A stretch of DNA of 64,000 bases from Patescibacteria group bacterium (GCA_048538215.1 JBLYPV010000001.1:75495-139494); one strand, 5' to 3'; positions 12,650-64,000 are shown, numbered from the stretch's first letter. Numbers and translations: made by a program. Notes: generated by a model from the letters alone, not told the origin.

Positions 12650-12658
12650 TGGTATAAT
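12650..12658 (+). promoter_or_regulatory. Extended -10 (TGGTATAAT) 8 nt upstream of rpiB ATG: candidate leaderless promoter
   Basis: TGnTATAAT at 12650..12658; ATG at 12666. Confidence 0.5.
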
Positions 12659-12665
12659 ATTTATT

Positions 12666-13187
12666 ATGAATAAAGGAAAGCTATACTTAGCTGCAGATCA
12701 TGCAGGGTTTGAGTATAAAAATATTTTGCACAAATATTTTGAGGATGTAGGATTAGATCATTACGAAGTGATAGATTTAGGAGCTTTTGTTTATAATGAG
12801 AGCGATGATTATCCAGACATTATTGCACGAGCTGGCCTTCTAGTATCAGCCAATCCTACTAGAGACAAGGCAATTATTTTTGGTGGCTCTGGGCAGGGTG
12901 AGGCGATAGTCGCCAATAAATTTGCTGGGGTACGCGCAGTAGTATACTATGGCTACAATCATGAAATTATTGCCCTCTCACGTGAGCATAATGATGCCAA
13001 TGTGCTCTCTATCGGCGCTCGATTCGTAAATGATAAGGAGATGGTCGAGGCAGCCAATCAATGGCTTGGTACTCCATTTTCAGACGAAAAGCGACACAAG
13101 CGAAGAATTGATCGTATCACTACTATAGAGAAAAATCGCGCTTGGAGATTCTTAGAGCGGATACTTAATCGTACTCCTAATAAATAA
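12666..13187 (+). CDS. rpiB: Ribose-5-phosphate isomerase B
   Basis: LYLAADHAGFEYKN... GGSGQGEAIVANK RpiB/LacAB motifs. Confidence 0.85.
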   Translation: MNKGKLYLAADHAGFEYKNILHKYFEDVGLDHYEVIDLGAFVYNESDDYPDIIARAGLLVSANPTRDKAIIFGGSGQGEAIVANKFAGVRAVVYYGYNHEIIALSREHNDANVLSIGARFVNDKEMVEAANQWLGTPFSDEKRHKRRIDRITTIEKNRAWRFLERILNRTPNK

Positions 13188-13192
13188 ATCGT

Positions 13193-14260
13193 ATGATAGA
13201 AATATCCCTCATTAAAGTTGTCTTATCTTGGTTGGTATCTTTTTTGATAGGATTTTTGATTACTCCCTATGTTATCAAGGTACTCACGCGCTTTCGTTGT
13301 TGGAAAAAGCGTTCTGGCAATACTCACTCTATGGGGAGCAATGGAGGCACACCTATATTCAACAAGCTACACGCTGATCGTGATACCAGGGTACCGCGTA
13401 TGGGAGGTATTGTAATCGTAATATCAGTATTGGCTACCACATCGATTTTTTGGGCAATAGGCTTCATCATCAGTGGTGGGCCATCAGGCGGTGATTTTGA
13501 TTTTCTTTCACGCACGCAGACCTGGCTTCCTCTAGCCGCCTTTGTGGCAGGGGCACTGATTGGATTTATTGATGATCTGCTCACCATTGGAGCAAGTAGA
13601 CGCTTCCCAAGCCTACAAGGGCTAGCACTTCGGTATAGGATTATTTTATCTACTGCTTTTGCCATACTCTCTGCCTATTGGTTTTATGTCAAGCTGGGTA
13701 TTGATAGTGTATTTGTGCCATGGTATGGAGATTTTGTGATGGGCTGGTGGTTTGTACCATTTTTTATCCTTGCTTTTATTGCAATTTTTGCCACTTCAAA
13801 TATCGACGGCTTAGATGGCTTGGCAGGTGGGGTAATGGCAATTATTTTTACCGCGATGGGAATTATCGCCTATTTCCAAAATCAGATAGATATCGCTGCT
13901 TTTTGCTTCGCAATAGTGGGGGGGACTCTTGCTTTTTTATGGTTTAATATCCCCCCTGCTCGATTTTATATGACAGAAGTGGGCTACAATGCTCTCTCTT
14001 TCTCGCTTGCTATTGTGGCATTTGCCACCGATACCATTTTAATCTTACCAGTATTGGCAGTGGTGCTCTTTATGACAGAAATTACTACAATATTACAAGT
14101 ATTATCCAAAAAAATCAGAGGTAAAAAAATATTTCGAGTAGCACCTATTCATCATCACTTCGAGGCTATTGGCTGGCCAGCTCATCAGGTAGTAATGCGA
14201 TATTGGATTGTTTCATTGATCGGAGCGGTGCTAGGGGTGATGCTCGCCTTCACAGCGTAG
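13193..14260 (+). CDS. mraY: Phospho-N-acetylmuramoyl-pentapeptide transferase
   Basis: NIDGLDGLAGG and PIHHHFE...GW motifs of MraY; 10 TM topology. Confidence 0.8.
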   Translation: MIEISLIKVVLSWLVSFLIGFLITPYVIKVLTRFRCWKKRSGNTHSMGSNGGTPIFNKLHADRDTRVPRMGGIVIVISVLATTSIFWAIGFIISGGPSGGDFDFLSRTQTWLPLAAFVAGALIGFIDDLLTIGASRRFPSLQGLALRYRIILSTAFAILSAYWFYVKLGIDSVFVPWYGDFVMGWWFVPFFILAFIAIFATSNIDGLDGLAGGVMAIIFTAMGIIAYFQNQIDIAAFCFAIVGGTLAFLWFNIPPARFYMTEVGYNALSFSLAIVAFATDTILILPVLAVVLFMTEITTILQVLSKKIRGKKIFRVAPIHHHFEAIGWPAHQVVMRYWIVSLIGAVLGVMLAFTA

Positions 14261-14294
14261 TTTGTTTTATATTATATGTATGGTATAAGTATAT

Positions 14295-14846
14295 TTGAAT
14301 GGAAAGGAGGTGATTGAAATGGATGGTACGAGCTACCTGATTAGCAGGGCTCAATTCGAGGAAATTACAAAGGAGTGGCACTATGGAGATCCACTTCCCC
14401 AAAAGCTACATCCAAGTATTTTTCGCCCCAATCGTGATGCCCACCCCTATTGGTTTGAGCCGGGAAAGGCTGCAGATCTTCGTGGGGCATACCACGAAGA
14501 GCGCCTCAAATATTTGATCGAGCTCGGCAAAGAAGAGGGGGAGCATGATTGGATCAGAGCAGTACGACTGAGCCCTGCCTATAGTGTTCGTGATAGGCGA
14601 GGGATTGATCTCACTCTGGATACTTGCTTTGGCAAGGTGCATGTCCAGGTAAAGAGTAGTCTTAGGGGGATGTGGAAATTTCTCAGCTATACCCCTAAAT
14701 TTTCGTCGAAGAAAGTTATTCCCTGCGTAGTCGTGCACACAGATATGACAGATGAAGAAATTCTCTATCAGTTTGTGCAAAAAGTGCGTCCATTTCTCCT
14801 GAAGAAGAAGCGTGAGAAAGAAGTATGGGATAGAGAGCACAAGTAG
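14295..14846 (+). CDS. Hypothetical protein, GC-rich ORFan; possible PD-(D/E)xK-like motif (GIDLTLD...VQVK)
   Basis: 183 aa; GC content visibly above flanking genes; weak D...QxK nuclease-like pattern only. Confidence 0.35.
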   Translation: MNGKEVIEMDGTSYLISRAQFEEITKEWHYGDPLPQKLHPSIFRPNRDAHPYWFEPGKAADLRGAYHEERLKYLIELGKEEGEHDWIRAVRLSPAYSVRDRRGIDLTLDTCFGKVHVQVKSSLRGMWKFLSYTPKFSSKKVIPCVVVHTDMTDEEILYQFVQKVRPFLLKKKREKEVWDREHK

Positions 14847-14865
14847 GACGCTCTATGCGGGCGTC

Positions 14866-16045: not shown

Positions 16046-16624
16046 CTATTGATTCATTAGCTCGCGCCATTTTTTACGAGTTACAGAGCGATAGCTCTCG
16101 TTACCTCCTATCAAATTTTGAGGGCCGTCTTGGGCCACTTTTCCATCTTCATCGAATCGGAGTACCATGGTAGCTTTTTTCCCCGATTCATCAATCGTAC
16201 GAATTTCTCTAAGATCGTCAGCAATTGCTAAAAGCGCTTGCGATCCAGGGAAAAGCTCGCCTCGAAAATCAGTACGAAGCCCATAGGCCATTACAGGAAT
16301 ATCTAAGTCATCCACCACTTGCGCTACTTGCCACACCTGTTCTTTGCTAAGAAATTGAGCTTCATCTATCAAAACGCAATCAATGGCTTGCACGCTATGC
16401 TTATTTTGTATTTTTTCAAATAAATTTTCTTGTGGCGTAAATACATCACATTTTTTAGACACACCAATCCGCGAGCTAATCACATCACTACCATCTCGAT
16501 TATCGAGAGCTGGCTTGAGTAAATAAGGATGCATTTTTCGCTCCAAATAATTATGTGCGACCTGCAGGAGCATGGTACTTTTACCTGCATTCATTGCTGA
16601 GTAATGAAAATAGAGCTTTGCCAT
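16046..16624 (-). CDS. tdk: Thymidine kinase
   Basis: SAMNAGKSTMLL P-loop, DEAQF, C-terminal zinc-ribbon-like region. Confidence 0.85.
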   Translation of the reverse strand: MAKLYFHYSAMNAGKSTMLLQVAHNYLERKMHPYLLKPALDNRDGSDVISSRIGVSKKCDVFTPQENLFEKIQNKHSVQAIDCVLIDEAQFLSKEQVWQVAQVVDDLDIPVMAYGLRTDFRGELFPGSQALLAIADDLREIRTIDESGKKATMVLRFDEDGKVAQDGPQNLIGGNESYRSVTRKKWRELMNQ

Positions 16625-16688
16625 AAAGTCTATTTTAGCATATTATCTCTTGCCTCATATGCTGGGATTGGTATACTAGCTTTTACTT

Positions 16689-17080: not shown

Positions 17081-17089
17081 TGGCATAAT
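17081..17089 (+). promoter_or_regulatory. Extended -10 TGGCATAAT 9 nt upstream of the HIT gene ATG
   Basis: Sequence position relative to ATG 17098. Confidence 0.45.
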
Positions 17090-17097
17090 ACAAGCAT

Positions 17098-17511
17098 ATG
17101 AGAGAACAAACAATTTTTGAAAAAATTATTAATCGCGAATTGCCTGCTGACATTATATACGAAGATGAGGAGCACTTGGTAATTCTTGATATTAATCCTT
17201 TTGAAAAAGGGCATATTCTAGTTATTCCCAAGCACCACTATGAAACGATTATGGATATGAGCGAAGAAGCATATCTGCAATTACAATCGTTAGTCCATCG
17301 CTTTGCGCTACGAATGCACCAGAGCTTTGGTGGGGGTATTAATGTGGTACAAAACAATTATCCAGAGGCACATCAAGTGGTCCCTCATGTGCATGTTCAT
17401 CTTATCCCGCGTACCGAAGACAAGCCGATGTATCATAGTGAGCTTCATACAGGAGGCTATGAATCAGATGAAGAAAAAGAGAGCTTTATCAGCAAGCTAA
17501 AATTGGTATAA
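17098..17511 (+). CDS. HIT-family (histidine triad) nucleotide hydrolase
   Basis: HVHVHLIP histidine triad, ...HILVIPKHH... Confidence 0.8.
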   Translation: MREQTIFEKIINRELPADIIYEDEEHLVILDINPFEKGHILVIPKHHYETIMDMSEEAYLQLQSLVHRFALRMHQSFGGGINVVQNNYPEAHQVVPHVHVHLIPRTEDKPMYHSELHTGGYESDEEKESFISKLKLV

Positions 17512-17909
17512 TGGGCGCTATGAAATTAGCAGAGCAATACGCCCGTACTTTATTGCAAGTAGCAGAGACAAAAGATGCAAAAGATTTTGATAAATTTTTT
17601 GATTTATTTATTGAATATCTGCGAGCACATCATCACGAAAAGCTCATACCACAAATATGCAAAAATGTAGTGCGCTTGAGCAAGTCTCAAGAGGCTTCCA
17701 ATAAAGCTACGATTACGGTGCGAGCCTTAGGAGAAGATAAGAAATTTTCTGATCTGATACATGAGCATCAAGATATGTTTGGCAATGCACCGCAAGTACA
17801 AGTGGATGCACACATTGTTGGGGGAGCTGTTTTGCGCAATCGCACACACCTAGTAGACGCAAGCTACCGCAAGGCCTTACTCGATCTTTATCAAACTCTG
17901 AAAAAATAA
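17511..17909 (+). CDS. atpH: F-type ATP synthase delta subunit (short, 132 aa)
   Basis: C-terminal ...HIVGGAVLRNRTHLVDASYRKALLDL pattern of OSCP/delta; position directly upstream of atpA. Confidence 0.55.
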   Translation: MGAMKLAEQYARTLLQVAETKDAKDFDKFFDLFIEYLRAHHHEKLIPQICKNVVRLSKSQEASNKATITVRALGEDKKFSDLIHEHQDMFGNAPQVQVDAHIVGGAVLRNRTHLVDASYRKALLDLYQTLKK

Positions 17910-18233: not shown

Positions 18234-18346
18234 TTTTTCTCTCCTTTCATCCTCACTTGCGCATAAGTGTAGCATAATCATTACACATTTGCTCGTCCTT
18301 TGGTATAATACGCGCGTATTAAACACTAATAATTTAAGAGAGCCCT

Positions 18347-19909
18347 ATGTCTAATCCAATTATTGAAAAGCTACAAAAAGAAATCAAAAATTTTTCAAAT
18401 AAAAGCACGGTAGAGTCTATTGGTACGGTCGTACAAGTAGCAGATGGAGTAGTGGAGATCGAAGGCCTCGAGGGGGTCAAAATGTCTGAGATGGTACGCT
18501 TTTCTTCAGATACAAGCAAGGCACTAGAAGAAGTGCTAGATAATACGAGCGAGGTATATGGCTTGATTCTTAATCTTGAAGAAGATGTGGTCAAGGCGGT
18601 AGTGATGGGAGATGCAAGCGGTATCAAGGAGGGTGATATGGTGGTCAAAACGGGCGAAATTCTTTCGGTACCAGTGTCAGAAGAAATACTCGGTAGAGTG
18701 GTAGACACACTCGCTCGCCCTATTGACGGAAAAGGAGCAATCAAAGAAGACAAGCAGATGCTTCTCGAGCGGGAGGCGTATTCGGTGATAGATCGAGCCC
18801 CAGTAAACACCCCTCTCCAAACGGGGATTAAAAGTATCGATGCACTTATTCCGATTGGGCGGGGACAGCGTGAGCTTATCATTGGAGATCGTGGCACAGG
18901 GAAGACCACCATTGCGATTGATACAATTATCAATCAAAAATATGAGCCAGAAGCAAAGCGTCCAATTTGTATATATGTCGCAATCGGACAAAAAGAATCA
19001 AAAACAGCCAAAATAGTTGAAGAGCTACGACAAGCGGGGGCCCTGGAATATTCAGTGATCGTATCAGCTCCAGCTTCTCGATCAGCTACTGAGCAATTCC
19101 TCGCTCCTTTTACTGGAGTAGCAATTGCCGAATACTTTATGGATCAGGGAAAGGATGTCCTAATCGCTTACGATGATCTTTCCAAGCAAGCTGCTGCTTA
19201 TCGACAAATGTCGCTTTTGCTCCGACGCCCACCAGGACGAGAAGCATACCCTGGTGATGTTTTTTATCTGCACTCCAGATTGCTCGAGCGGTCAGCCAAG
19301 GTGCATGAGGGATTAGGAGGAGGATCTATTACAGCTCTACCAATTATTGAGACGCAAGAGGGCGATGTATCCGGCTTTATTCCTACTAATGTGATCTCCA
19401 TTACCGATGGACAAATTTTCCTAGATACAAATTTGTTTAACAAAGGGATTCTACCAGCAATTGATGTAGGGCTCTCTGTGTCTCGTGTGGGCTCATCGGC
19501 TCAAACCAAAGCAATGAAGAAAGTGTCAGGGCGTATCAAGGTGGATTTGGCACAGTTTCGTGAGCTAGAGGCTTTTATGCAATTTTCTAGTGATCTTGAT
19601 GAGAACACCCGAGAAAAAATTGAATCTTCTGTACGGGTAGTAGAAATGCTTAAGCAAAAAAATAGCGCACCACTTCCTTTTGAAAAACAAGTCGTCACAC
19701 TTTACTTTGTATCAAATGGATTTGCTCGAGATTTTGAGGTAGATACACTCGCTGGAATTGAAAAAGAGCTTCATGAGCGAATTGAAGCAGAAAAGCCAGA
19801 AATACTTGGCACTATTCGTGAAAGTGGAAAATTGGAGGATGACACCAGGGATGCTCTGCATGATTTTCTAGAGCATTTTGTGGTCTCAAAAGGGGTAAAG
19901 CAATCATAG
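18347..19909 (+). CDS. atpA: F-type ATP synthase alpha subunit
   Basis: GDRGTGKTT Walker A and full alpha-subunit homology. Confidence 0.95.
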   Translation: MSNPIIEKLQKEIKNFSNKSTVESIGTVVQVADGVVEIEGLEGVKMSEMVRFSSDTSKALEEVLDNTSEVYGLILNLEEDVVKAVVMGDASGIKEGDMVVKTGEILSVPVSEEILGRVVDTLARPIDGKGAIKEDKQMLLEREAYSVIDRAPVNTPLQTGIKSIDALIPIGRGQRELIIGDRGTGKTTIAIDTIINQKYEPEAKRPICIYVAIGQKESKTAKIVEELRQAGALEYSVIVSAPASRSATEQFLAPFTGVAIAEYFMDQGKDVLIAYDDLSKQAAAYRQMSLLLRRPPGREAYPGDVFYLHSRLLERSAKVHEGLGGGSITALPIIETQEGDVSGFIPTNVISITDGQIFLDTNLFNKGILPAIDVGLSVSRVGSSAQTKAMKKVSGRIKVDLAQFRELEAFMQFSSDLDENTREKIESSVRVVEMLKQKNSAPLPFEKQVVTLYFVSNGFARDFEVDTLAGIEKELHERIEAEKPEILGTIRESGKLEDDTRDALHDFLEHFVVSKGVKQS

Positions 19910-22563: not shown

Positions 22564-22650
22564 TTAGACTCCGCGGGGAATAGTGTACTATATTGCCCCA
22601 GCTATTTCAAATAATCCTTCTTAGAAAAAATCTGCTACAATACTTTTATT

Positions 22651-23331
22651 ATGGGTACACTATTTGTGGTCGCTACACCAATTGGAAATCTAGAGGATAT
22701 TACTTATCGAGCGGTACGTATTTTGGGCGAGGTAGACACTATTTTATGTGAGGATACTCGGGTCACCAAGCGCTTACTTACTCATTATAATATTGATACA
22801 CCAGTTTTATCTTATCACGCGCACAGCGAGAGCTCGCGTAGTGATGATATTATAGAGCGTCTTGTCGGTGGTGAAAAAATGGCACTAGTATCTGATGCAG
22901 GCACGCCCACCATCTCTGATCCGGGTGTACAGCTCGTATCTCGAATCTATAGCGAATATCTTGATAAAATTCAGGTCATAGCAATTCCAGGACCTTCGGC
23001 GCTTACTACCGCTTTCTCAATTTCTGGCGTGGGTGGCAATCAATTTATTTTTATGGGCTATTTCCCGCACAAAAAAGGCAGGGAGACTTTATTTAACGAA
23101 ATAGCTTCAAGTGCCCGCCCTGTAATATTTTATGAATCACCTCACCGTATCGAAAAGACCCTCGCTTCTTTGGCAGAGCACTTAGAAGCTACACGACGAG
23201 TAATCATCGCTCGAGAGCTTACCAAAATTCACGAGCAGGTAGTACAAGGCACTGCTCAAGAAGTACAAGCATATTTTATTGAACATCCAGATAAGGTACG
23301 AGGGGAATTCGTAGTAGTTGTGGATAATTAA
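22651..23331 (+). CDS. rsmI: 16S rRNA (cytidine1402-2'-O)-methyltransferase
   Basis: GTLFVVATPIGNLEDIT... tetrapyrrole-methylase fold motifs of RsmI. Confidence 0.85.
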   Translation: MGTLFVVATPIGNLEDITYRAVRILGEVDTILCEDTRVTKRLLTHYNIDTPVLSYHAHSESSRSDDIIERLVGGEKMALVSDAGTPTISDPGVQLVSRIYSEYLDKIQVIAIPGPSALTTAFSISGVGGNQFIFMGYFPHKKGRETLFNEIASSARPVIFYESPHRIEKTLASLAEHLEATRRVIIARELTKIHEQVVQGTAQEVQAYFIEHPDKVRGEFVVVVDN

Positions 23332-23399
23332 TTTTTATATTTTTCCTACTCACACGCAATGTGCTGGTGTGCATATGCTCTCAAGCTATACTGCAGAGT

Positions 23400-25142
23400 A
23401 TGTGCGGTATCTATGCAATCACCAGTCAGAAATCAAATACAGCCGAGCGTGTTTTTAAGGGGCTACAGATTTTGGAGTATCGCGGCTATGATAGTTGGGG
23501 GATAGCAGCGCGCACAAATAGCCAAAAATTTGAGCGTATTCGCCACATCGGTAAAATATCTGATTCGGCTTGTGAAGTGCCGGAAAGCAGTGAGTCGCTC
23601 GGGCACACGCGTTGGGCTACTTGCGGTGAAGTATCTGAGGCGAATACTCATCCACACACATCAGGGAGCATCACTCTTGTACACAATGGCATAGTAGAAA
23701 ATTTTCAATCTCTCAAAGAAGAGCTCGAGAGTCTGGGCTATTTTTTTGTATCACATACCGATTCAGAAGTACTAGCAGGATTGATAGATTACAGCTTGAA
23801 AGACCAAAAAAATAAGCTCAAAGCTTTACAATCTGTAGTAGAAAAAATCGAAGGTCGATCATCGGTAGTGTTTGCTATCCAGGGAGAAAGAGGTATGTAT
23901 GCCTTCACTACAGGATTAGCTCTTGTTGTTGGCTTTGAGGAAGAAGAAAGTATGATTGCTTCTGATCCTATGGCGTTTACTGCTCGGGCGCAAGAAGTAG
24001 TGTATATGGAGCCTGGGCAGGCAGGATATTTTAATACATCTCAAAGAGAATTCTATAATTTAGATACAGGCGAAGTAGTATACCCATCGTCTGAGAAGTG
24101 GGCCCTTAGTGATACGCCAAGTAGTGAAAAAGCTTGTAATGAGCACTATATGCTGAGGGAGATAATGGAGCAGAAAAAGCTTGTGAGAAAAGTAATGGAG
24201 CAGAGCGAATGTATTGCACAATTAGGACAAGCTATAAAAAATGCCAAGCAAGTATATCTTACAGGCTGTGGCACAGCGCATAAGGTGGCAATGCTGGGCG
24301 CCTATTATCTACATCTTTGCGGTATTGATGCAAAGGCGGTAGTTGCAAGTGAGATAGATGAATATTTAGGGCTCATTAATAAAGATACGCTCTGTATTGC
24401 AATTTCTCAATCAGGCGAGACAGCAGATGTACTCTGTGGTATCGAAAGAGTGCAAGCTCAGGGGGCCGAGATAGCAGCTATTACCAATGTAGCCCACTCA
24501 TCACTTGCAAGAAAAGCAAGTACTGTGCTTCCAATATATGCCGGGGCAGAGCTTGCGGTAGCGTCTACTAAAGCTTGTATGAACCAAATAGCAGTACTTT
24601 ATCAAGTCGCTTGTAGTATATCCAAGAATATACCAAGTACCGATCAAGACGCCTTAGAAGAAAGCCTAGCTTATATACTAAGTGATACCTCGCAAGATGC
24701 CATCTCTTACTTTGCGCAGAGTATCTCGAGCATAAGAGAAATATTCCTTATAGGTAGTGGCGCATACTATCCACTCGCTCTTGAAGGGGCTATCAAGATA
24801 GCTGAAGTATCCTATATCAATGCCCAAGGATTTGCCACAGGCGAGCTCAAGCACGGCCCCCTAGCTTTGATAGAAAAGGGCAGGGTATGTATCGTCCTGG
24901 GGAGCGAGGCAAAAGATCTGCGTGCTGCAGCTCAGATGAGGGCACGAGGCGCTTATATCGTAGGTATTGCAGTAGATACTAGCCCAGAATTTGATATTCA
25001 TATTCCAAGCAGGGGAGAGGGATTTATTGCCCATATGAGCACCTTAGCAATTCTTCAATTGCTTTCTTACCATCTTTCGCTAGCACGAGGTATCAATCCA
25101 GATCGTCCACGTAATTTAGCAAAGAGTGTGACCGTCCAATAA
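23400..25142 (+). CDS. glmS: Glutamine--fructose-6-phosphate aminotransferase
   Basis: N-terminal MCGI (Cys1 nucleophile) after TATACT -10 placed 8 nt upstream; two SIS domains; start moved to 23400 from ORF-track 23361. Confidence 0.9.
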   Translation: MCGIYAITSQKSNTAERVFKGLQILEYRGYDSWGIAARTNSQKFERIRHIGKISDSACEVPESSESLGHTRWATCGEVSEANTHPHTSGSITLVHNGIVENFQSLKEELESLGYFFVSHTDSEVLAGLIDYSLKDQKNKLKALQSVVEKIEGRSSVVFAIQGERGMYAFTTGLALVVGFEEEESMIASDPMAFTARAQEVVYMEPGQAGYFNTSQREFYNLDTGEVVYPSSEKWALSDTPSSEKACNEHYMLREIMEQKKLVRKVMEQSECIAQLGQAIKNAKQVYLTGCGTAHKVAMLGAYYLHLCGIDAKAVVASEIDEYLGLINKDTLCIAISQSGETADVLCGIERVQAQGAEIAAITNVAHSSLARKASTVLPIYAGAELAVASTKACMNQIAVLYQVACSISKNIPSTDQDALEESLAYILSDTSQDAISYFAQSISSIREIFLIGSGAYYPLALEGAIKIAEVSYINAQGFATGELKHGPLALIEKGRVCIVLGSEAKDLRAAAQMRARGAYIVGIAVDTSPEFDIHIPSRGEGFIAHMSTLAILQLLSYHLSLARGINPDRPRNLAKSVTVQ

Positions 25143-25230: not shown

Positions 25231-26916
25231 TTAATTACAATGCCGAATCACATCTTTGAGCTTGAATCGTGGGCGGACTTTTTTGCCAGGATTAAAGATG
25301 TCATTAGGGTCACATACCTGCTCGAGCTTACTAAAAATTTCTAGCACTTCTTTGCTAAACATAGTATCAAGATAGGGTGTACGTATAATGCCGTCATTGT
25401 GTTCACCACAGATACTACCACCTAGTGAAGTAGCAAGAGCAAAAAATTCTTGAGCCATTACCTGTATATTTTCTACTGTATTGGCTTGAGTAAAATCTAT
25501 AAGCGGATAAAAGTGTAAATGTCCATTGCCAGCGTGGCCATAAACAAGAGCCTCTACGTCATATTTATCAAATAGCTCTCTAATTCCATAGAGAAAATCA
25601 CCGAATCGTGCTGGAGGCACTGCCATATCTTCAAGAAATGGGGCAGGGCGCTTGTCGGGGTAGGCAAGCTTTGAGAGTGAATATGCAGCAGAGCGAATTT
25701 GCCAGAGCATAGCACCTTCTCCGGGATCAGTGATTTGATGTGCTCGAGTCTTATAATTACGAGATATCTCAGCGACTAATTTATGTGCAAAAGAAGCTTC
25801 ATCAGCTGGAAGAGTGACGAGCAGGATATATGCTGGTATGCGACGCATTAATTTAAAATTATAGTGCTTGCGAAGAGAGGTGTGAAACAATCGGTAATCT
25901 TCGCTACTCAGCTCCTGTTTGAAATAATCCATTCTTTTTTGAGCCCTTCGATAGGTAGCCCCATCAAATATTTCAATATCAATAGGATGATATTTTGAAA
26001 GATGGGTGAGTATTTCTCCCGCACGGCTCACATCATTAAGTGATATAGCTACAAGGCTCGTATCTTCTTCTTTGGGAATTGCTTGTACCCAAATACGGCT
26101 AATGATGCCCAAAGTGCCCTGCGAGCCAGAAAAAATCTGAGTGAGATCAAATACTCCTCTATTCTGCATAAATTCCTCTACCGTGGTGGATACCACATCC
26201 CACAATGCATAGCCAGCAGAGTTTTTGCGTACTTGCGGGCGAGCTTTGATTATAAGCTCTTCATGATGTAAGCAGAGCTCCCATATATGGCGATAGATTT
26301 CACCAAGCAAATCATCTCGTTTGAGCTCGACTTGAAATTCATCCCAAGAGAGCGGGCGAATATGATATTCTATTCCATCTGCAAGGATGACATTGAGGGC
26401 TCGTACATATTGAGCAGTTTGTCCATAACGGTAGCTATGAGCTCCAGCCGCATTATTGGCCACCATCCCACCAATAGTGCACATATCTTTTGAGGCTGGA
26501 TATGAAGGAATGTACACTCCTGCTTTATCCATCACTTCTTCCAAATCTCTATACAAGACTCCCGGATCACATTCATAAATAATGCCATCATCATTAAGCT
26601 CCTCATTAATGATAGCGTGTAAATTAGTATGAGTGTCAATGATTACACCATCATTGAGAGATCCTCCTGTAAGCCCAGTCCCAGCTCCTCGTGGAGTAAG
26701 GTGAAGCGGGAAGGCGTTTGTATTCAAGCTCTGTATACTGGTGACGGTGCGTATAATGTCCTGTGTGTGCAGAGGAAAGAGCACAAGCTCTGGCTCGAGA
26801 TAAAAAATACTTTCATCACTTGCATATTGCGTGCGCGTATCTCGAGAGCTGTCAATTTTGCCTTCAAATCCAGCTTTGATTAAGTAATCTTCTAGTTGTG
26901 TGTACACACTACTCAT
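25231..26916 (-). CDS. FAD-linked oxidase (GlcD/D-lactate dehydrogenase family)
   Basis: FAD_binding_4 motif PRGAGTGLTGGS and C-terminal FAD-oxidase domain. Confidence 0.75.
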   Translation of the reverse strand: MSSVYTQLEDYLIKAGFEGKIDSSRDTRTQYASDESIFYLEPELVLFPLHTQDIIRTVTSIQSLNTNAFPLHLTPRGAGTGLTGGSLNDGVIIDTHTNLHAIINEELNDDGIIYECDPGVLYRDLEEVMDKAGVYIPSYPASKDMCTIGGMVANNAAGAHSYRYGQTAQYVRALNVILADGIEYHIRPLSWDEFQVELKRDDLLGEIYRHIWELCLHHEELIIKARPQVRKNSAGYALWDVVSTTVEEFMQNRGVFDLTQIFSGSQGTLGIISRIWVQAIPKEEDTSLVAISLNDVSRAGEILTHLSKYHPIDIEIFDGATYRRAQKRMDYFKQELSSEDYRLFHTSLRKHYNFKLMRRIPAYILLVTLPADEASFAHKLVAEISRNYKTRAHQITDPGEGAMLWQIRSAAYSLSKLAYPDKRPAPFLEDMAVPPARFGDFLYGIRELFDKYDVEALVYGHAGNGHLHFYPLIDFTQANTVENIQVMAQEFFALATSLGGSICGEHNDGIIRTPYLDTMFSKEVLEIFSKLEQVCDPNDIFNPGKKVRPRFKLKDVIRHCN

Positions 26917-26960
26917 TGGATGTATTATATCAGTGATTTTTTGTTATAATACTCTCCATT

Positions 26961-27692
26961 ATGAACAAGTTTACAATTAGTATTATCGTTTTATTAGTAG
27001 CTTTTGGAGTCTTAATTTTTATGGCCTCAAGAAATGGCACGCAGAGTAATTTATCAGACCAAGATCGAGCAGATATTCTTGCTATACAAGCAGATGATCA
27101 TATACAGGGCAATCCTGATGCCGATGTAGTATTAGTAGAGTATGCAGATTTAGAGTGCCCAGCTTGTGCCGCTTTTCATCCTCTCGTGCAAGAAGTGCTG
27201 GCTCAATATGGAGATAGCATTGCAGTGGTATCACGACATTTTCCACTTTCAATTCATCAGAATTCCCGCACCGCCGCTTGGGCAGTGGAAGCTGCCGCCC
27301 TTCAAGGCAAATATTATGAGATGGCAGATATGCTTTATACTCGACAATCAGAATGGTCTGGTAAAATTGCCAATGTATCAATCTTTGAGCCATATGCCGA
27401 GGAGCTAGGGCTAGATATGGCACAATACCGAGCTGATGTATTGAGCGACGAGGTGAAGGCTCGAGTAGAAAAAGATCTACAGGAGTCACGCACTCTAGGG
27501 CTTAATTCTACCCCCACATTCTTCCTACAAGGCGAAAAGCTCGTGGGAGTAGGAAATGCAAATGCTTTTGCACAAGCAATCGAAGGGGCTATAGCAAAAG
27601 CTAATGCTCTAGTCCAGGAAGAAGAGGAAACAAATACAAGTATCACCACCAGCACAAGCTCGATGAGTACAAGTACCGCTACAAGCTCCTAG
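26961..27692 (+). CDS. DsbA-family thiol:disulfide oxidoreductase, membrane anchored, Ser/Thr-rich C-terminal tail
   Basis: CPACAAFH active site in thioredoxin fold; tail EEEETNTSITTSTSSMSTSTATSS. Confidence 0.65.
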   Translation: MNKFTISIIVLLVAFGVLIFMASRNGTQSNLSDQDRADILAIQADDHIQGNPDADVVLVEYADLECPACAAFHPLVQEVLAQYGDSIAVVSRHFPLSIHQNSRTAAWAVEAAALQGKYYEMADMLYTRQSEWSGKIANVSIFEPYAEELGLDMAQYRADVLSDEVKARVEKDLQESRTLGLNSTPTFFLQGEKLVGVGNANAFAQAIEGAIAKANALVQEEEETNTSITTSTSSMSTSTATSS

Positions 27693-29611: not shown

Positions 29612-29635
29612 TATATATGTGCTAGTATAGCAGAT

Positions 29636-30214
29636 ATGTCGACTCCACTCTATGAAGAATATCTACTTGTAAATATCGTTCCAGAGCTTGCACAGGGGCG
29701 CCCAGATTGGGATCTGCCCCATACACTCAAGGTTGTGGAGTATGTAAAAATCATTACTGATATACATAGTGCAGAGCCTTCTCTCAATCGAGATGTGCTG
29801 ATTATCTCCGCATATTTGCACGACTACGGCTATAGGTATTTTCTTGATGATATTATCCCTCATCGTCCCACATTGGGAGGAAGAGCAAAAGAAGAGCATG
29901 CCCTAAAGAGTGCAGAGAAATGGCAAGAGATTAAAAATCACGAGGTATTTAATTTTTTAAGCGAGGAAGACAAAGATCAGATTGAGCATTTAATTCTTGT
30001 ACACGACAAGGTCTACGATTTGCAAGATATTGATGAGCTTGTTCTTATGGAGGCAGATACTCTCGGAGCGCTCGGGACAAAAAGCCAAGTAGATGTCACA
30101 AGCGATGCCTATCAGCGCTATCTTCGTGCTACTCAAGAGAAAAGAATTAGCCGATTTATTACTCCTTATGCCAAAGATGAGGCAGAGCGATTACTCAGCG
30201 AGCTCCTCATCTAG
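29636..30214 (+). CDS. HD-domain phosphohydrolase
   Basis: H...HD motif (HTLKV...AYLHDYG); start moved to MSTPLYEEY (29636), 8 nt after a TAGTAT -10. Confidence 0.6.
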   Translation: MSTPLYEEYLLVNIVPELAQGRPDWDLPHTLKVVEYVKIITDIHSAEPSLNRDVLIISAYLHDYGYRYFLDDIIPHRPTLGGRAKEEHALKSAEKWQEIKNHEVFNFLSEEDKDQIEHLILVHDKVYDLQDIDELVLMEADTLGALGTKSQVDVTSDAYQRYLRATQEKRISRFITPYAKDEAERLLSELLI

Positions 30215-30350
30215 GGGTGTAATTTGTATCATCTTTAGTAAATTCTGTGGATAACAAATATAGATAGCTAATACTTTGGGATTTTAGTCCGGGATTCTCA
30301 AAATGGGCGCTTAATAGGGGGGATAGTTTACGGATGGTACAATATGTTGT

Positions 30351-32590: not shown

Positions 32591-32599
32591 TGGTATAAT
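32591..32599 (+). promoter_or_regulatory. Extended -10 TGGTATAAT; downstream ATG at 32606 is 7 nt away (leaderless start)
   Basis: ORF-track ATG at 32600 abuts the -10, so 32606 is preferred. Confidence 0.5.
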
Positions 32600-32605
32600 A
32601 TGCAA

Positions 32606-33934: not shown

Positions 33935-33948
33935 AGATACAATATATA

Positions 33949-41269: not shown

Positions 41270-41719
41270 ATGAAACACATACTCAAAAACACCACACTCG
41301 TCTTGGGAGGTATTGCCCTTGCTATAGGCAGTATGGTATTCGCTGCTACCTGGCAAGGCACTGATACTATTCAAAATGGACAAATCATAGAAGCAGATGT
41401 TATTAAAGATAATTTTGATTATTTGTATGAGCTAGTAGGGGAAGTGAAAGCTAGTTGTAGTGGAGGAGGAAGTATTATCCTAGGAAAGAACCCTATTACG
41501 GGTGAAAATATCACTCAATCACTACCAGCTAATGGAGGAGAGCATCTACAAGTAGCAGGAGCAGATGGAACAGTATACCAGTGTCTTGATGGTAGCTGGA
41601 ACGCTATCAATATGGGCTCAGGAGCAACATCTAATAATCCATGTCCTCCTGGACAGCAATTGGTGAATTCTGGTGGTGGGATGATGGTATGTAATCCAGG
41701 CGCTGGAGGCCCACAATAA
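41270..41719 (+). CDS. Hypothetical secreted Gly/Cys-containing protein
   Basis: N-terminal signal/TM; TATAAA -10 7 nt upstream. Confidence 0.35.
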   Translation: MKHILKNTTLVLGGIALAIGSMVFAATWQGTDTIQNGQIIEADVIKDNFDYLYELVGEVKASCSGGGSIILGKNPITGENITQSLPANGGEHLQVAGADGTVYQCLDGSWNAINMGSGATSNNPCPPGQQLVNSGGGMMVCNPGAGGPQ

Positions 41720-41849: not shown

Positions 41850-41859
41850 TGGGTATAAT
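41850..41859 (+). promoter_or_regulatory. -10 element TGGGTATAAT 8 nt upstream of lysS ATG (leaderless)
   Basis: Positions 41854..41859 TATAAT; ATG 41867. Confidence 0.5.
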
Positions 41860-41866
41860 AGGTGGT

Positions 41867-43743: not shown

Positions 43744-43749
43744 TATAAT
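43744..43749 (+). promoter_or_regulatory. -10 TATAAT 8 nt upstream of the P-type ATPase ATG (leaderless)
   Basis: GTTTATAATACATAGGATG. Confidence 0.5.
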
Positions 43750-43756
43750 ACATAGG

Positions 43757-52532: not shown

Positions 52533-52541
52533 TGCTATAAT
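52533..52541 (+). promoter_or_regulatory. Extended -10 TGCTATAAT 8 nt upstream of the parB ATG (leaderless)
   Basis: ORF-track ATG at 52540 lies inside the -10, so 52549 is preferred. Confidence 0.5.
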
Positions 52542-52548
52542 GTTTCTT

Positions 52549-54126
52549 ATGAACGACTTACAAGTTATTAATTCTGTCTTTAATATAGAAATTGAAAAGA
52601 TAGATCCTAATCCCAATCAGCCACGCAAGCATTTTTCTGATGAATCTTTGCGTGATTTGGCAGAATCAATTCGTCGTTATGGCGTTATGCAACCAATTAC
52701 TGTTGTGCGTCGTGAGCAAGAGACAGCAGGAGGGGGGATTATTACTCGTTATGAGATAGTAGCAGGGGAGCGACGATGGCGCGCATCAGTAATAGCAGGG
52801 ATGTCTACCATACCTGCTATTATTCGGGAGGATGCAGATAGTGAGCAAGAGCGATTTGAATTATCGGTTTTGGAAAATTTACAAAGAGAGGATCTGAATC
52901 CAGTAGATAGGGCTAGATCCTTTGAACGGCTAGTTAATGAATTTGGTATGCGTCATGCAGAGATTGCTGATCGACTGGGTAAATCTCGAGAGTATGTGAC
53001 TAATTCAATGCGAATTTTGGATTTGCCTGATAATGTACTCGACGCTCTTTCAGCAGGGGAGATATATGAAGGACATACTCGCCCAATGCTTTCTATTAAA
53101 GATCACCCAGAAGAATTGCAGGTACTATTTCAAGAAATTAAAGCAAAACATCTTACCGTCCGCCAAGCCGAAACAATGGCTAAGGCTTTGGTAGGTAAAG
53201 GTCCCAAGCCCAGTCGAGGGTCATCATCAGTGAAGCAAGATCAATATGCGCGTGATCCCGAAATCCTTGCTCTGCAAGCAAAGCTCTCTGATACATTTGG
53301 CACTAAGGTTTCAATTGATGCAAAAGATGATGGTGGTAAGCTGACCATAGATTTTTTTTCTCGTGATGACTTAAAAAAAATATTAGATTTAGTAGGCACT
53401 AATACAAGCTCGCAATATTCAGCAAATAATAATCAAAGTAGTAGCCAAGATAGTCGCCAAGAGGTGCCCCCTAAGGGGGAATTGGATGTGGATAATGACT
53501 TTCAAATTATTCCTCGCCCTAGCCACCAAGCATTTTATACCTCAAAAGCTTATTCTGATGAGAATAAATCAATTACAGATTCACCATTTAGTAGTAATGA
53601 TGCTCGAGAAGGCAAGAAAGATATCTTTGATGATATGCCACTAGGGAATGAAAGGCATATACATTTTGATGGAGAAAATCTTACAAAGCCTTTTCCACAA
53701 GAGCCAGCTTTTTCTGCACGGGAAGAAAATCCTATAGAAGAGAAAATATTAAATAATCAAGAGAATATAGATGCTCATCAAGTGGAAAATCATATACCAG
53801 ACGTGAAATCAAAGCCCGTGGGGCAATTAGGCGATGAATTTGTACCTCAAGTAGCCCCAAAAGGAATTGGGGCAGAGCTTGATTCCTCGGTATCTTTTGG
53901 TGAGGATTTTATCCCTAGAAATAGCCAATCACAAGAAAACGATCATACCCAGCCAATTTCTCGTGATGCAAAAATTACTATGGGAGGTATGGGCATGGGA
54001 GATCACCTAGGTATTGATACTAGGCAAAGAGCAACACCGAGTGCTCCTATTGATGATGCCTACATAAAATCTTTACATTCACAAGATGATGATGATCCCT
54101 ATCGTTTAGATAATTTTTCTATTTAG
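52549..54126 (+). CDS. parB: ParB/Spo0J-family partition protein with about 250 aa low-complexity C-terminal extension
   Basis: ParB N-domain (GERRWRA arginine patch, HTH); long disordered acidic/Ser-rich tail; no parA adjacent. Confidence 0.75.
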   Translation: MNDLQVINSVFNIEIEKIDPNPNQPRKHFSDESLRDLAESIRRYGVMQPITVVRREQETAGGGIITRYEIVAGERRWRASVIAGMSTIPAIIREDADSEQERFELSVLENLQREDLNPVDRARSFERLVNEFGMRHAEIADRLGKSREYVTNSMRILDLPDNVLDALSAGEIYEGHTRPMLSIKDHPEELQVLFQEIKAKHLTVRQAETMAKALVGKGPKPSRGSSSVKQDQYARDPEILALQAKLSDTFGTKVSIDAKDDGGKLTIDFFSRDDLKKILDLVGTNTSSQYSANNNQSSSQDSRQEVPPKGELDVDNDFQIIPRPSHQAFYTSKAYSDENKSITDSPFSSNDAREGKKDIFDDMPLGNERHIHFDGENLTKPFPQEPAFSAREENPIEEKILNNQENIDAHQVENHIPDVKSKPVGQLGDEFVPQVAPKGIGAELDSSVSFGEDFIPRNSQSQENDHTQPISRDAKITMGGMGMGDHLGIDTRQRATPSAPIDDAYIKSLHSQDDDDPYRLDNFSI

Positions 54127-54951: not shown

Positions 54952-54957
54952 TATAAT
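54952..54957 (+). promoter_or_regulatory. -10 TATAAT 8 nt upstream of in-frame ATG 54965 (leaderless)
   Basis: GCGGTATAATGAAATGCATGG. Confidence 0.45.
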
Positions 54958-54964
54958 GAAATGC

Positions 54965-56158
54965 ATGGCGCACACACCACGATTTTTGCGGTCATTTGAT
55001 GGTCGTTATACCGAGCTTGTTTTGAGCTATCTTTCTGATAATGTGGCAGCTACTCTTTATTATCATAGCAAGGATGCTGAGCCACGGGTACTCGCACACA
55101 TTCAAAAGAGTCTACCTGTTTTTAAGCGTCACCCTAGTCGCCGAGAGATTATAGATGAATCTCTTTTTCTTAGCAAAAGTGTTTGCGAAGAGGTACTTCG
55201 TGAAGCATACGAGCTCTATCAAATTAAAGATTTACTCAAAGATGATCAAAGAATTGATAAGGTTTCTTGTTTTCTTTCCGTACCTTGGCTACGATACGAG
55301 CACTACAACTGCCACCTTGAATTTGACACTCTCGAGCGTATTGATAAAGATACAATCAACAAAGAGCTCCGTGAGAATATCCCTCAAGCGCATATGCGTG
55401 TAGATAGGCACATCGCTCCTATTTTTGCTAATGGCTATGCTACTCGATTGGATGTAGCCTTATCTAACAAGATCCGTACCCTAAGTTTTGGAGTAATAGA
55501 AAGCTTTGCTCGCCTCGATGAACTTGAAACACTTTATCAACTACTTCTTACCGAGCTCAATATTGAGCCAAATCAATTATCTTTTTATTCGGTAGGAAAT
55601 AACTTGCGTGCATTTACTCAAGCGCAATATGCTCCTGAACGAGAATATGTATCTGCTCATATTCATGGCTACTCTAGTGATGTAGTGGTAGTAGAGCAAG
55701 GAGAGATTAGCTATGCTGGATTGATTAATTATGGCTACTATGATTTTATTGATCGTCTGAAAAGGTCAGGGATTGCTCCTGATTTTCAAAGTGTTTGGAG
55801 TATACTTGCAATGAGGAGTCGTAATGAGCTTGATGATGCCACGAAAGAGCAAGTACTAAAAGTTGGCAAGGTGATAGTAGAAGACTACGAGCAAGCAATT
55901 AAAATATCTATGGCTGATCAGCTAGGACTTAGTGAGCAAATATGGACAGAAATACCTCGAGATTGGTACGTATTGGGTGATCAATCTATAGGAAGATATT
56001 TTGCTCAATTTTTATACGATGAGGATCCTACGCGACGTGTCGTTGCTCCGCTAGCTCGGGAGGAACAGAAGTATGACCACGCATCTCACATACAGGTACT
56101 TCACAACGCTCTTATTCGTTATCGGCAAGAGCAAAGTGGTTTGGTGCTCGTACAATAA
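54965..56158 (+). CDS. Actin-fold (ASKHA) protein, PilM/FtsA-like (tentative)
   Basis: Segments LVLSYLSDNVAATLY and HIHGYSSDVVVVEQGEISYAGLINYGYYDFIDRL align to the PilM phosphate-binding loops. Confidence 0.4.
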   Translation: MAHTPRFLRSFDGRYTELVLSYLSDNVAATLYYHSKDAEPRVLAHIQKSLPVFKRHPSRREIIDESLFLSKSVCEEVLREAYELYQIKDLLKDDQRIDKVSCFLSVPWLRYEHYNCHLEFDTLERIDKDTINKELRENIPQAHMRVDRHIAPIFANGYATRLDVALSNKIRTLSFGVIESFARLDELETLYQLLLTELNIEPNQLSFYSVGNNLRAFTQAQYAPEREYVSAHIHGYSSDVVVVEQGEISYAGLINYGYYDFIDRLKRSGIAPDFQSVWSILAMRSRNELDDATKEQVLKVGKVIVEDYEQAIKISMADQLGLSEQIWTEIPRDWYVLGDQSIGRYFAQFLYDEDPTRRVVAPLAREEQKYDHASHIQVLHNALIRYRQEQSGLVLVQ

Positions 56159-62640: not shown

Positions 62641-62717
62641 TTGGCTTTACTGATGAGTAAGACAAAAAAGAGTATATCCTCTTTTCTTTTTGTCTTAGAT
62701 TTTGTTATATTGGAGGG

Positions 62718-62960
62718 ATGACTAACGAAAGTTTTAAGAATAATAATGAAATTTCTAAGGAAAAACATGCCTACTCTCTCAATGATTTAGAGCAGTATGG
62801 TCAAATGATATTTAATAATCTAGCTCCAACGGGTGCACTTGATGAAGAATGGGGCCACATAAATGGATATCTAGCACAAGCAAGACGAAACATTATTTCT
62901 CCTCAAGAAGCTCGAGAGCGTATTGATACGTATTTGAAAAAAAGAAGTAGCTATCACTAA
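62718..62960 (+). CDS. Hypothetical small protein
   Basis: ORF only. Confidence 0.25.
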   Translation: MTNESFKNNNEISKEKHAYSLNDLEQYGQMIFNNLAPTGALDEEWGHINGYLAQARRNIISPQEARERIDTYLKKRSSYH

Positions 62961-62999
62961 ACTTGCTAATTCGTAGAATGTACTGTATAAAGCAGGTAA

Positions 63000-63578
63000 T
63001 TGAAACTTAAAGCGATGGTGGCGCTAATGACCCAAAAAGATATGTTCCCTGGGTATGACCTTGGCTTGAGTATGGATGCGGTGATCGATCCACAAGACAC
63101 TGGTGACGAGTGGTCTCTATGGCGAGTATGGCAACATAAGGGCTTTGCAGGCATCACCGATATAGATGCCCTCGCTTTGCGTCAATGGCTTATGATGCCG
63201 AATTGTCCTCTCGGCCAAGACAGTAAGGATCATTATCTCGATTCCTATGCCTGGGAAGCTCTCAATAGAGAGCGGATGCTTATGATTAATCAGTTTTTCC
63301 GCTTGCATACGACCGTGTGGGGTATCCGATTGGCAATTCGCAAGAATCCAAATATTCGACTCGTACATCTGGGCGAGCGGGAATTTGGAAAAGTGATTGG
63401 TAGTAAGCCACAGAAATTGCTCCGACCGAGTGATGGCAAAGCTATCTGGACCAAGCAATTACTGCCACAGCGGGCATTCCGTGGCTGTTTGTACAGCTGC
63501 CTCAATGATGTACGCAAGAAAGGAGGAGTCGGCTATCTCTTGGGACGTGCAGAACAACTCAATATGAAATGGCACTAG
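63000..63578 (+). CDS. Hypothetical protein, GC-rich ORFan
   Basis: GC clearly above flanks; followed by GC-rich hairpin GGGCTGCGC-TTAC-GCGCGGCCC. Confidence 0.35.
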   Translation: MKLKAMVALMTQKDMFPGYDLGLSMDAVIDPQDTGDEWSLWRVWQHKGFAGITDIDALALRQWLMMPNCPLGQDSKDHYLDSYAWEALNRERMLMINQFFRLHTTVWGIRLAIRKNPNIRLVHLGEREFGKVIGSKPQKLLRPSDGKAIWTKQLLPQRAFRGCLYSCLNDVRKKGGVGYLLGRAEQLNMKWH

Positions 63579-63635
63579 CAAAGGAATCATGGGCTGCGCT
63601 TACGCGCGGCCCTGTTACTTTGCTATAATCAATCT

Positions 63636-63914
63636 ATGCAGACAAATAAAAAAAGCAAACAATTAATATATGTAGTACTGTTCTTGTTTGGGGCCTTTAT
63701 TTTTGGCGTATTTCTCTATTTTATAGTGCTATGGGCGAGCTTTGATTATCAAGCTAATTTTATAAAACAAGAGCGATGTATTCAATCTGGAGGCGTATGG
63801 TCTATTAGTGATAATCGTTGCTGGTATGCAGGCCAATGTGAAGACTTAGGAGGATTTTGGTATCCGATAGAGAAGCGCTGTGTATATGATGTAGATACAA
63901 TCAAGCTAAAGTAG
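63636..63914 (+). CDS. Small membrane-anchored Cys-containing protein, hypothetical
   Basis: N-terminal TM; TGCTATAAT -10 7 nt upstream (leaderless). Confidence 0.3.
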   Translation: MQTNKKSKQLIYVVLFLFGAFIFGVFLYFIVLWASFDYQANFIKQERCIQSGGVWSISDNRCWYAGQCEDLGGFWYPIEKRCVYDVDTIKLK

Positions 63915-63934
63915 GTATGCTATAATTTGTGCCT

Positions 63935-64000
63935 ATGACAGAAGTAATTACTCGCTTTCCACCTTCTCCAACTGGAGAAATTCACATTGGAAATATTCGT
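63935..64000 (+). CDS. gltX: Glutamyl-tRNA synthetase, N-terminal 22 codons (runs off window)
   Basis: MTEVITRFPPSPTGEIHIGNIR (class I HIGN motif); TATAAT 9 nt upstream. Confidence 0.7.
   Translation, partial: MTEVITRFPPSPTGEIHIGNIR

Follow-up and report, generated by a model that had tools for sequence, protein, structure and literature searches.

We analysed a 64,000-nucleotide (nt) stretch of DNA from a Patescibacteria group bacterium (GCA_048538215.1, JBLYPV010000001.1:75495-139494), hereafter the window, and focused on the TATAAT-like hexamers that immediately precede many of its start codons. The main finding of this study is that these hexamers carry the signature of sigma70 extended -10 promoters, with the consensus TGnTAtAATa, and that transcription very probably starts at the A of the AUG itself or 1-3 nt upstream of it, which would make the corresponding mRNAs leaderless. 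Leaderless transcription had been put forward in the original prediction and is the best explanation on every sequence-based test applied here, namely the motif, its spacing, the fixed starts and conservation in relatives, while the phenomenon is larger than had been claimed. The window has a GC content of 41%, its genes lie almost all on the plus strand, and it holds 12 tRNA genes, tRNA being the only Rfam family found. Among GTDB representative genomes, the closest lysS genes come from Minisyncoccia, Saccharibacteria and Paceibacterota metagenome-assembled genomes (MAGs) and are only 50-54% identical at the amino acid (aa) level, which indicates that the organism belongs to a deep-branching lineage of the candidate phyla radiation (CPR). 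Open reading frames (ORFs) were scored by codon usage, and first ATGs, N-terminal conservation and the starts given by NCBI guided the curation of 67 starts. For comparison we used NCBI's annotation of the source MAG (contig of 622,806 bp), in which the glmS protein has an identical counterpart and 26 further proteins of the window were matched exactly (MFW08709xx; locus tags ACKKL4_00xxx).

The first line of evidence is the frequency with which a -10 box adjoins a start codon. Under a strict rule, which requires a TATAAT-like hexamer with at most one mismatch and a spacer (the bases that separate the hexamer from the A of the ATG) of 5-10 nt, 35 of the 67 curated starts (52%) qualify, and all 35 are ATG. 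A relaxed rule, with a spacer of 4-12 nt and TG plus TANNNT with at most two mismatches, admits 41 of the 67 genes, compared with 7.3% of control ATGs. The spacers of the 35 genes have a mode of 7 nt (two genes at 5 nt, seven at 6, 13 at 7, five at 8, five at 9 and three at 10), and 25 of the 35 lie at 6-8 nt. Circularity is avoided in a naive test, in which the first ATG of each ORF was picked as the start, blind to promoters. In this test, 29 of 69 ORFs (42%) have a close hexamer, against 104 of 2028 other ATGs (5%; Fisher, 2.6e-18), and the positional profile peaks at 6-9 nt, whereas the other positions of these upstream regions average about 1.4 hits each. The perfect arrangement TATAAT-N5-10-ATG occurs 19 times in the window, compared with 10.5 +/- 3.2 times in dinucleotide shuffles, and 13 of these 19 are gene starts. 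Similarly, eight of the 11 perfect TGnTATAAT sites sit 6-10 nt before a start codon, and a ninth is the atpA promoter. Away from starts there are 85 TG-extended matches, near the value of about 82 that a rough hand computation from base frequencies gives for chance, so that the excess is specific to starts. A close -10 box under the strict rule is found at 27 of 45 genes that are first in their unit (60%) and at eight of 22 genes that follow another at less than 40 nt (36%), a difference that is not significant in this small sample (Fisher p of 0.12); the latter eight imply that some promoters lie within the 3' end of the gene in front. The 14 genes named in the original prediction all have a TATAAT-like element, and qualifying genes upstream of the range it covered include those at 6759, 7314, 9439 (minus strand), 9560 and 12539 (minus strand). 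The spacing of 7-9 nt that it reported needs adjusting, since the actual spacers at these genes are 5-8 nt, or 6-9 nt when the A of the ATG is included, and its label "PilM-like" for the gene at 54965 is unconfirmed, with no Pfam hit for the product.

The composition of the motif points in the same direction. When the 35 sites are aligned on the hexamer, its six columns hold T in 28, A in 34, T in 29 (C in five), A in 35, A in 31 and T in 31 cases; the base after the hexamer is A in 20, and the extended -10 positions hold T in 21 and G in 24. A TG extension at -15/-14 is present at 18 of the 35 sites, compared with a TG frequency of 6.3% (p = 4e-13). No -35 element was found in the 35 aligned promoters, which show no conserved column from -25 to -17 relative to the hexamer. 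The same motif occurs upstream of tRNA genes, reading TGgTATACT at tRNA-Val (11 nt away) and TGcATAAT at tRNA-Arg (7 nt away). More generally, several tRNAs have -10-like boxes about 4-14 nt upstream of the mature 5' end (Ser, 10 nt; Val, 11; Asp, 6; Glu, 4; Arg, 7), and tRNA genes with such boxes include those at 10813, 16689, 22292, 28355 (minus strand) and 36542 (minus strand). With boxes so near the 5' ends, the tRNA precursors would have almost no 5' leader, which suggests that placing promoters against the functional 5' end could be a genome-wide habit.

A further line of evidence concerns the start codons themselves. GlmS must begin with Met-Cys, because this Cys is the obligatory N-terminal nucleophile of the enzyme. 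The codons ATG-TGC-GGT (Met-Cys-Gly) encode exactly such an N-terminus, in a product identical to the 580-aa NCBI protein, and the glmS start is thus fixed by biology and not by a gene finder. The N-terminus of Tdk, MAKLYFHYSAMNAGKST, matches that of E. coli Tdk, and the N-termini of the HIT protein (MREQTIFEKII), of GltX (MTEVITRFPPSPTG, a canonical GluRS beginning) and of RpsP and AtpD are canonical for their families, which likewise fixes the starts of these genes. The start annotated by NCBI is the -10-proximal ATG at 17 of the 18 genes tested, with 32600 instead of 32606 as the sole mismatch, and NCBI picks the downstream ATG at four genes with an in-frame ATG inside the -10 box (17520, 52549, 54965 and 59272). 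The original prediction had noted that upstream in-frame ATGs clash with the -10 box, and we find overlap or abutment at 17511, 52540, 54956, 59266 and 32600; the starts that it adjusted for this reason are not new, having already been annotated by NCBI except at 32600. In the region 14284-14321, at gene ACKKL4_00520, NCBI places the start at a TTG (14295) that lies 5 nt after TGgTATAAG, and the ATG at 14319, which is preceded by the window's best Shine-Dalgarno (SD) sequence, looks better. The promoter-proximity model may have been over-applied at this locus.

Conservation in relatives was assessed on three metagenomic contigs, L081 (90 kb) and L084 from JGI sample 3300038702 and L085 from the Logan assembly SRR31818012. 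L081 was reached via a member of the LexA cluster, and L084 and L085 via the two closest glmS homologues; a scan of metagenome contigs with the FAD-oxidase gene gave no match. Their synteny with the window covers 4.8-9.4 kb and 14.9-28.2 kb of the latter, where nt identity is about 72%. Ten orthologous families keep a -10 box at 6-10 nt, with a spacer whose sequence differs (Table 1). Genes with a leader remain leadered, the distance in the window and in the relative being 37 and 35 nt for atpA, 24 and 34 nt for lexA, and 34 and 36 nt for a cupin gene, and tsaD, atpG and dinB, which have no nearby -10 box in the window, have none in the relative either. In L084 the atpH -10 box reads TATAATC and therefore holds no in-frame ATG, which confirms the downstream start of this gene. 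The JGI and Logan gene callers mis-set glmS, calling a 542-aa product from an internal ATG in L084 (9887) and a 592-aa product from an upstream TTG in L085 (757), whereas the Met-Cys-Gly codons stand 8 nt (L084) and 9 nt (L085) after a conserved TATACT. The JGI gene calls in L081 give the same close -10 pattern as the window.

Beyond these relatives, the pattern is found in other members of the CPR. In the naive test, 38 of 146 genes (26%) from other CPR loci, taken together, have a close hexamer, with an approximately 2.4-fold peak at 6-11 nt and a TG extension in 11 of 36, whereas an identical analysis of eight low-GC Ignavibacteria loci gives six of 162, which is a depletion. With independent gene calls, six of 20 genes on a Kaiserbacteria contig (L087) are of the close -10 type, including glmS at 7 nt, and few such genes are present on a Peregrinibacteria contig (L086) and two other CPR contigs (L088 and L089). 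The uneven counts indicate that the trait is patchy in the CPR and strongest in the window's own lineage.

How would such genes be expressed? We propose that sigma70-type extended -10 promoters, without a recognisable -35 element, drive most transcription units and that RNA polymerase would initiate from them at the A of the ATG or 1-3 nt before it, as judged from the usual -10-to-transcription start site (TSS) distance of 7 +/- 1 bp and the pyrimidine(-1)/purine(+1) rule. Across 49 bacteria, TSSs are centred on the 7th base after the -10 box, and the polymerase favours, within 6-9 bases of the box, a purine that follows a pyrimidine (PMC12641261). Spacers of 5-8 nt, as found in 27 of the 35 genes, place the A of the ATG at the 6th-9th base after the box, and 27 of the 35 starts read T(-1)A(+1), which is the preferred Y-1/R+1 start context. 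The start codons of two divergent gene pairs are only 44 bp (26916/26961) and 24 bp (29611/29636) apart with two -10 boxes in each gap, which leaves no alternative promoter positions. The resulting mRNAs, having no room for an SD, would take the leaderless route, in which the ribosome together with initiator tRNA recognises the 5'-terminal AUG directly; ribosome loading of this kind is proposed by analogy with known leaderless mRNAs. Genes that lie just behind another, mostly without a -10 box and without an SD, would probably rely on SD-independent initiation or on re-initiation, and a U at -1 together with an unstructured start region could help either of these.

Several points weigh against a strictly leaderless arrangement or weaken the evidence for it. 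The eight genes with spacers of 9-10 nt are likely to have a short leader of 1-3 nt, or of 1-4 nt in some transcripts; such mRNAs, like those that would start at the A, leave no space for an SD. The most frequent spacer is 7 nt and not the 6 nt typical of Mycobacterium. T stands at -1 just as often in genes without a nearby -10 box (27 of 32), and T(-1) may therefore be a translational context signal that needs to be transcribed, which would argue for transcription starting at -1 or earlier. The agreement with NCBI starts at 17 of 18 genes is not fully independent, because the GeneMarkS-2 component of PGAP itself models a promoter near the start. Finally, a close hexamer is expected by chance at about 5-12% of genes, and the weaker matches at 31457 (AATAAT), 47162 (TCTAAT), 41270 and 59914 (both TATAAA) could be due to chance in AT-rich DNA.

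The alternative that fares best accepts the hexamers as true promoters but places the TSS a few bases before the AUG, so that the mRNAs would have 5' untranslated regions (UTRs) of 2-5 nt in which U(-1) is part of the message and helps the start codon to be recognised, through extended pairing with A37 of the initiator tRNA. The spacer mode of 7 nt and the 13 of 35 genes at 8-10 nt speak for it, a TSS at the 7th base then falling at -1 to -4, as does the presence of T at -1 in 81% of starts irrespective of class. We nevertheless consider it unlikely, because the Y-1/R+1 preference within 6-9 bases of the -10 box favours the A of the ATG at spacers of 5-8 nt, which is the situation at 27 of the 35 genes. 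In functional terms it is little different from leaderless expression starting at the A, and by convention an mRNA with a UTR of at most 5 nt still counts as leaderless.

Translation signals of the usual kind are nearly absent. A strong SD is found at only two of the 67 starts, 4327 and 14319, which is two of the 32 non-leaderless genes, and the majority of the non-leaderless genes lack an SD entirely. The mean predicted energy of the anti-SD duplex is -1.0 to -1.5 kcal/mol upstream of starts versus -2.5 kcal/mol at random ATGs, and SD motifs are found less often in front of starts than in front of random ATGs. The view that SD leaders and leaderless mRNAs coexist, advanced in the original prediction, gives SDs too large a role, strong ones being found only at 4327 and 14319 and atpA having only AAGAGAG in its leader. 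The presence of two long SDs suggests that this organism, whose 16S gene lies outside the window, has retained an anti-SD. Two other features are shared by all genes. T occupies position -1 at 54 of the 67 starts (81%), in both classes alike, compared with 43% of internal in-frame ATGs, which possibly reflects either the Y-1 rule for TSSs or pairing of U(-1) with A37 of the initiator tRNA. In addition, the first 36 nt of the coding sequence are less structured, at -1.9 kcal/mol versus -4.7 kcal/mol at internal controls (p about 1e-8 to 1e-9).

With SDs so scarce, some other signal for the ribosome is needed, and the TATAAT-like motif might itself be that signal, of the non-SD or S1-binding type described as GeneMarkS-2 group B, on leadered mRNAs transcribed from upstream promoters. 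The presence of the motif at eight of the 22 genes less than 40 nt behind another would fit such a role. This explanation has a very low probability in our view, since the TG extension, like the T1/A2/T6 pattern, is specific to contacts with sigma70, genes without a close -10 box show no positional motif from -14 to -2, and the divergent gaps of 24-44 bp are too tight for other promoters. Moreover, the motif precedes tRNA genes, which are untranslated, and stands 24 and 37 nt upstream of lexA and atpA, where it serves as a promoter. At lexA it takes the form TTGACA-17 bp-TATACT, with a Cheo box, GAACATTCGTTC, in the promoter spacer (4781-4809). This is the only clear -35/-10 promoter in the window. 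The box is an SOS box of the Gram-positive (Cheo) type, no SD is present in the leader of about 17 nt, and L081 keeps both box and -10 (window 4781-4836; L081 about 9950-10003). At atpA, which is among the few leadered genes, a perfect 14-bp palindrome, AATACGCGCGTATT (18307-18320), overlaps the end of the -10 box and the beginning of the leader and is kept in L084 (about 3095-3110), where it may likewise act as an operator or form a 5' hairpin.

A chance or circular origin, in which AT-rich DNA yields hexamers to which starts are then fitted, can appeal to the GC content of 41%, to the roughly 10 perfect TATAAT-N5-10-ATG arrangements expected and to the off-start TG matches at their chance number, but it has next to no probability left and is refuted by the naive test with its sharp peak (42% versus 5%), the starts fixed by homology, the like result with L081 gene calls, the depletion in Ignavibacteria (6/162) and conservation in relatives.

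Table 1. Promoter and start-codon arrangements in the window, with spacers in orthologues (window/relative) where a relative was compared.
Feature	Coordinates	Strand	Upstream element	Distance to start (nt)	Start codon	Remarks	Spacers in window/relative
176-aa gene	6743..6761	+	TGaTACAAT	7	ATG 6759	Promoter within dinB 3' end	7/6; L081 TGaTATACT
VIT1 gene	7300..7316	+	TATAAT	8	ATG 7314		8/9; L081 TATAAT
HI0933-like gene	9437..9457	-	TGcTACAAT	9	ATG 9439		9/9; L081 TGaTACAAT
rpiB	12650..12668	+	TGgTATAAT	7	ATG 12666	Pfam LacAB_rpiB	
tdk	16622..16640	-	TGcTAAAAT	7	ATG		7/7; L084 TGaTAAAAT
HIT gene	17081..17100	+	TGgCATAAT	8	ATG 17098		8/7; L084 TGtTAAAAT
atpH	17504..17522	+	TGgTATAAT	7	ATG 17520	In-frame ATG 17511 inside -10; NCBI start 17520	7/7; L084 TGgTATAATcacggctATG, no upstream ATG
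rsmI-like gene (TP_methylase)	22633..22653	+	TGcTACAAT	9	ATG		9/9; L084 same hexamer, other spacer sequence
glmS	23387..23402	+	TATACT	7	ATG-TGC-GGT at 23400		7/8/9 (window/L084/L085); L085 9 nt before ATGTGTGG
Divergent pair	26914..26963	both				Back-to-back promoters, 44-bp gap	Divergent promoter pair kept in L084 and L085
FAD-linked oxidase gene	25231-26916	-	TGaTATAAT	7	ATG 26916	Divergent pair	7/7/7
DsbA-like gene		+	TGtTATAAT	10	ATG 26961	Divergent pair	10/10
DUF2914 gene		-	TGcTATACT	12	ATG 29611	Same 13 bp as HD promoter	
HD-domain gene (29636-30214)	29620..29638	+	TGcTAGTAT	7	ATG 29636	NCBI start identical	
CaCA antiporter	30335..30353	+	TGgTACAAT	7	ATG 30351		
ORFan	32591..32608	+	TGgTATAAT	6	ATG 32606	NCBI start 32600 abuts -10	
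mltG	33938..33951	+	TACAAT	5	ATG 33949		
41270 ORF	41259..41272	+	TATAAA	5	ATG	Weaker case	
lysS	41854..41869	+	TATAAT	7	ATG 41867	NCBI start identical	
P-type ATPase	43744..43759	+	TATAAT	7	ATG 43757		
parB	52533..52551	+	TGcTATAAT	7	ATG 52549	ATG 52540 inside -10	
Hypothetical 397-aa gene	54952..54967	+	TATAAT	7	ATG 54965	ATG 54956 inside -10	
63636 ORF	63621..63638	+	TGcTATAAT	6	ATG		
gltX	63918..63937	+	TGcTATAAT	8	ATG 63935		
Contrast, SD	4312..4329	+	SD AAGGAGGG	7	ATG 4327		
Contrast, SD	14303..14321	+	SD AAAGGAGGTGAT	5	ATG 14319	11-nt match to canonical anti-SD/16S tail; promoter TGgTATAAG 29 nt upstream	
Contrast, leadered atpA	18301..18349	+	TGgTATAAT	37	ATG 18347	Leader has only AAGAGAG (dG -4.6)	

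A few individual sites deserve mention. The unrelated genes at 21050 (21037-21052) and lysS (41854-41869) have an identical spacer, AGGTGGT, between the -10 box and the ATG, and at 62718 GGAGGG stands in the same place; both are best described as purine-rich discriminators, too near the ATG for an SD role. The sequence TGCTAGTATAGCA at 29620-29632, which serves the HD and DUF2914 genes, reads as an extended -10 element on both strands (TGcTAGTAT on the plus and TGcTATACT on the minus strand), with hexamers that overlap by 5 bp and predicted start sites about 18 bp apart. It resembles the symmetric bidirectional promoters with overlapping -10 elements that Warman et al. reportedly described in 2021 and, unlike the pattern that dominates the window, it is the single such site there. 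YchF is encoded at 60318-61424 (N-terminus MSKLSIGIVGLPNVGKSTLF), with TATAAT 11 nt before its start; this protein is a reported modulator of leaderless-mRNA translation in E. coli and is retained in the CPR (PMC12641178). The gene for the HI0933-like flavoprotein (8198-9439, minus strand) has an in-frame TAA at 8879-8881 where L081 has Leu (WLES-L-GHTI in L081 versus WLAS-*-GHTI in the window), which would be either a recent nonsense mutation, making this a pseudogene, or an assembly error. TGA is rare as a stop codon in the window (TGA 4, TAA 36 and TAG 30, in 70 genes). Recoding of TGA was rejected, because code 11 leaves glmS and other genes intact and TAA is what breaks the sole interrupted gene.

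What these results may mean for the biology of the lineage can be stated only tentatively. With slightly less than even confidence, we suggest that its genes are expressed almost wholly without 5' leaders and SDs, from extended -10 promoters without a -35 that are set against the functional 5' ends of mRNAs and tRNAs alike, at least 60% of the units being leaderless and the rest SD-independent (U at -1, open structure), that the habit is patchy in the CPR (Kaiserbacteria, some Saccharibacteria, Paceibacterota and Dojkabacteria), and that it is a lineage trait, undescribed in the literature, tied to a reduced ribosome with a short bS1 and frequent loss of the anti-SD. A full-text literature search gave only incidental mentions and no paper tying leaderless expression to Patescibacteria or the CPR. 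The GeneMarkS-2 genome listing or PGAP may already class such genomes as group C; the paper on the transcriptome of N. lyticus TM7x contains no discussion of UTRs. Leaderless initiation is regarded as an ancestral mode common to all domains of life, and its documentation at genome scale comes mainly from Actinobacteria, Deinococcus and archaea. If it were shown to be dominant in an ultrasmall CPR bacterium in which SDs are nearly absent, the oddities of the CPR ribosome would be linked to an actual initiation strategy. There are also practical implications. Gene calling in CPR metagenome bins is one, as illustrated by the glmS start that the JGI and Logan callers mis-set in two relatives, and the design of expression constructs for the few genetically tractable Patescibacteria is another, for which a simple rule would be TGnTATAAT, 6-7 nt, ATG.

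Comparison with known systems highlights important similarities and differences. Leaderless transcription was reportedly described in Actinobacteria and Deinococcus-Thermus by Cortes et al. in 2013 and de Groot et al. in 2014. GeneMarkS-2 group C is defined by a Pribnow box that precedes the start codon of the first gene in an operon by 6-8 nt, and this group takes in 90% of Actinobacteria and 97% of Deinococcus-Thermus (Lomsadze et al. 2018, PMC6028130). The window resembles group C genomes (Mycobacterium, Streptomyces and Corynebacterium, as well as Deinococcus-Thermus) in having -10 boxes at 6-8 nt, AUG starts and no SD on the genes concerned, and in the share of first genes affected, which is at least 25% (25-50% or more in group C; 27 of 45 here). 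It differs in its host, a Patescibacteria genome of low GC and about 0.6 Mb, in its spacer mode of 7 nt instead of 6 nt, and in the motif, which is a near-perfect TATAAT with frequent TG, in contrast to the degenerate TANNNT of high-GC actinobacteria. Furthermore, the remaining genes of group C genomes normally use SDs, whereas the operon-internal and leadered genes of the window are also SD-free (two of 67 starts with a strong SD). SD-poor genomes with non-SD initiation are known among group B Bacteroidetes, in cyanobacteria and in chloroplasts (Baez et al. 2019, PMC6847099; Nakagawa et al. 2017, PMC5397173). Like these, the window shows near-absence of the SD, an unstructured, AU-rich start region and an upstream nucleotide preference (here U at -1); unlike those lineages, which have leadered mRNAs with a non-promoter motif, its dominant upstream motif is an extended -10 promoter. 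Within the CPR superphylum itself, the anti-SD motif is missing in about half of Parcubacteria and bS1 is shortened, and leaderless genes were not reported (Tsurumaki et al. 2022, PMC9297842). These peculiarities of the ribosome fit a reduced reliance on SDs such as we see, although the long SDs in the window suggest that the anti-SD has been kept here. Taken together, these comparisons describe a known architecture in a new lineage and not a new mechanism.

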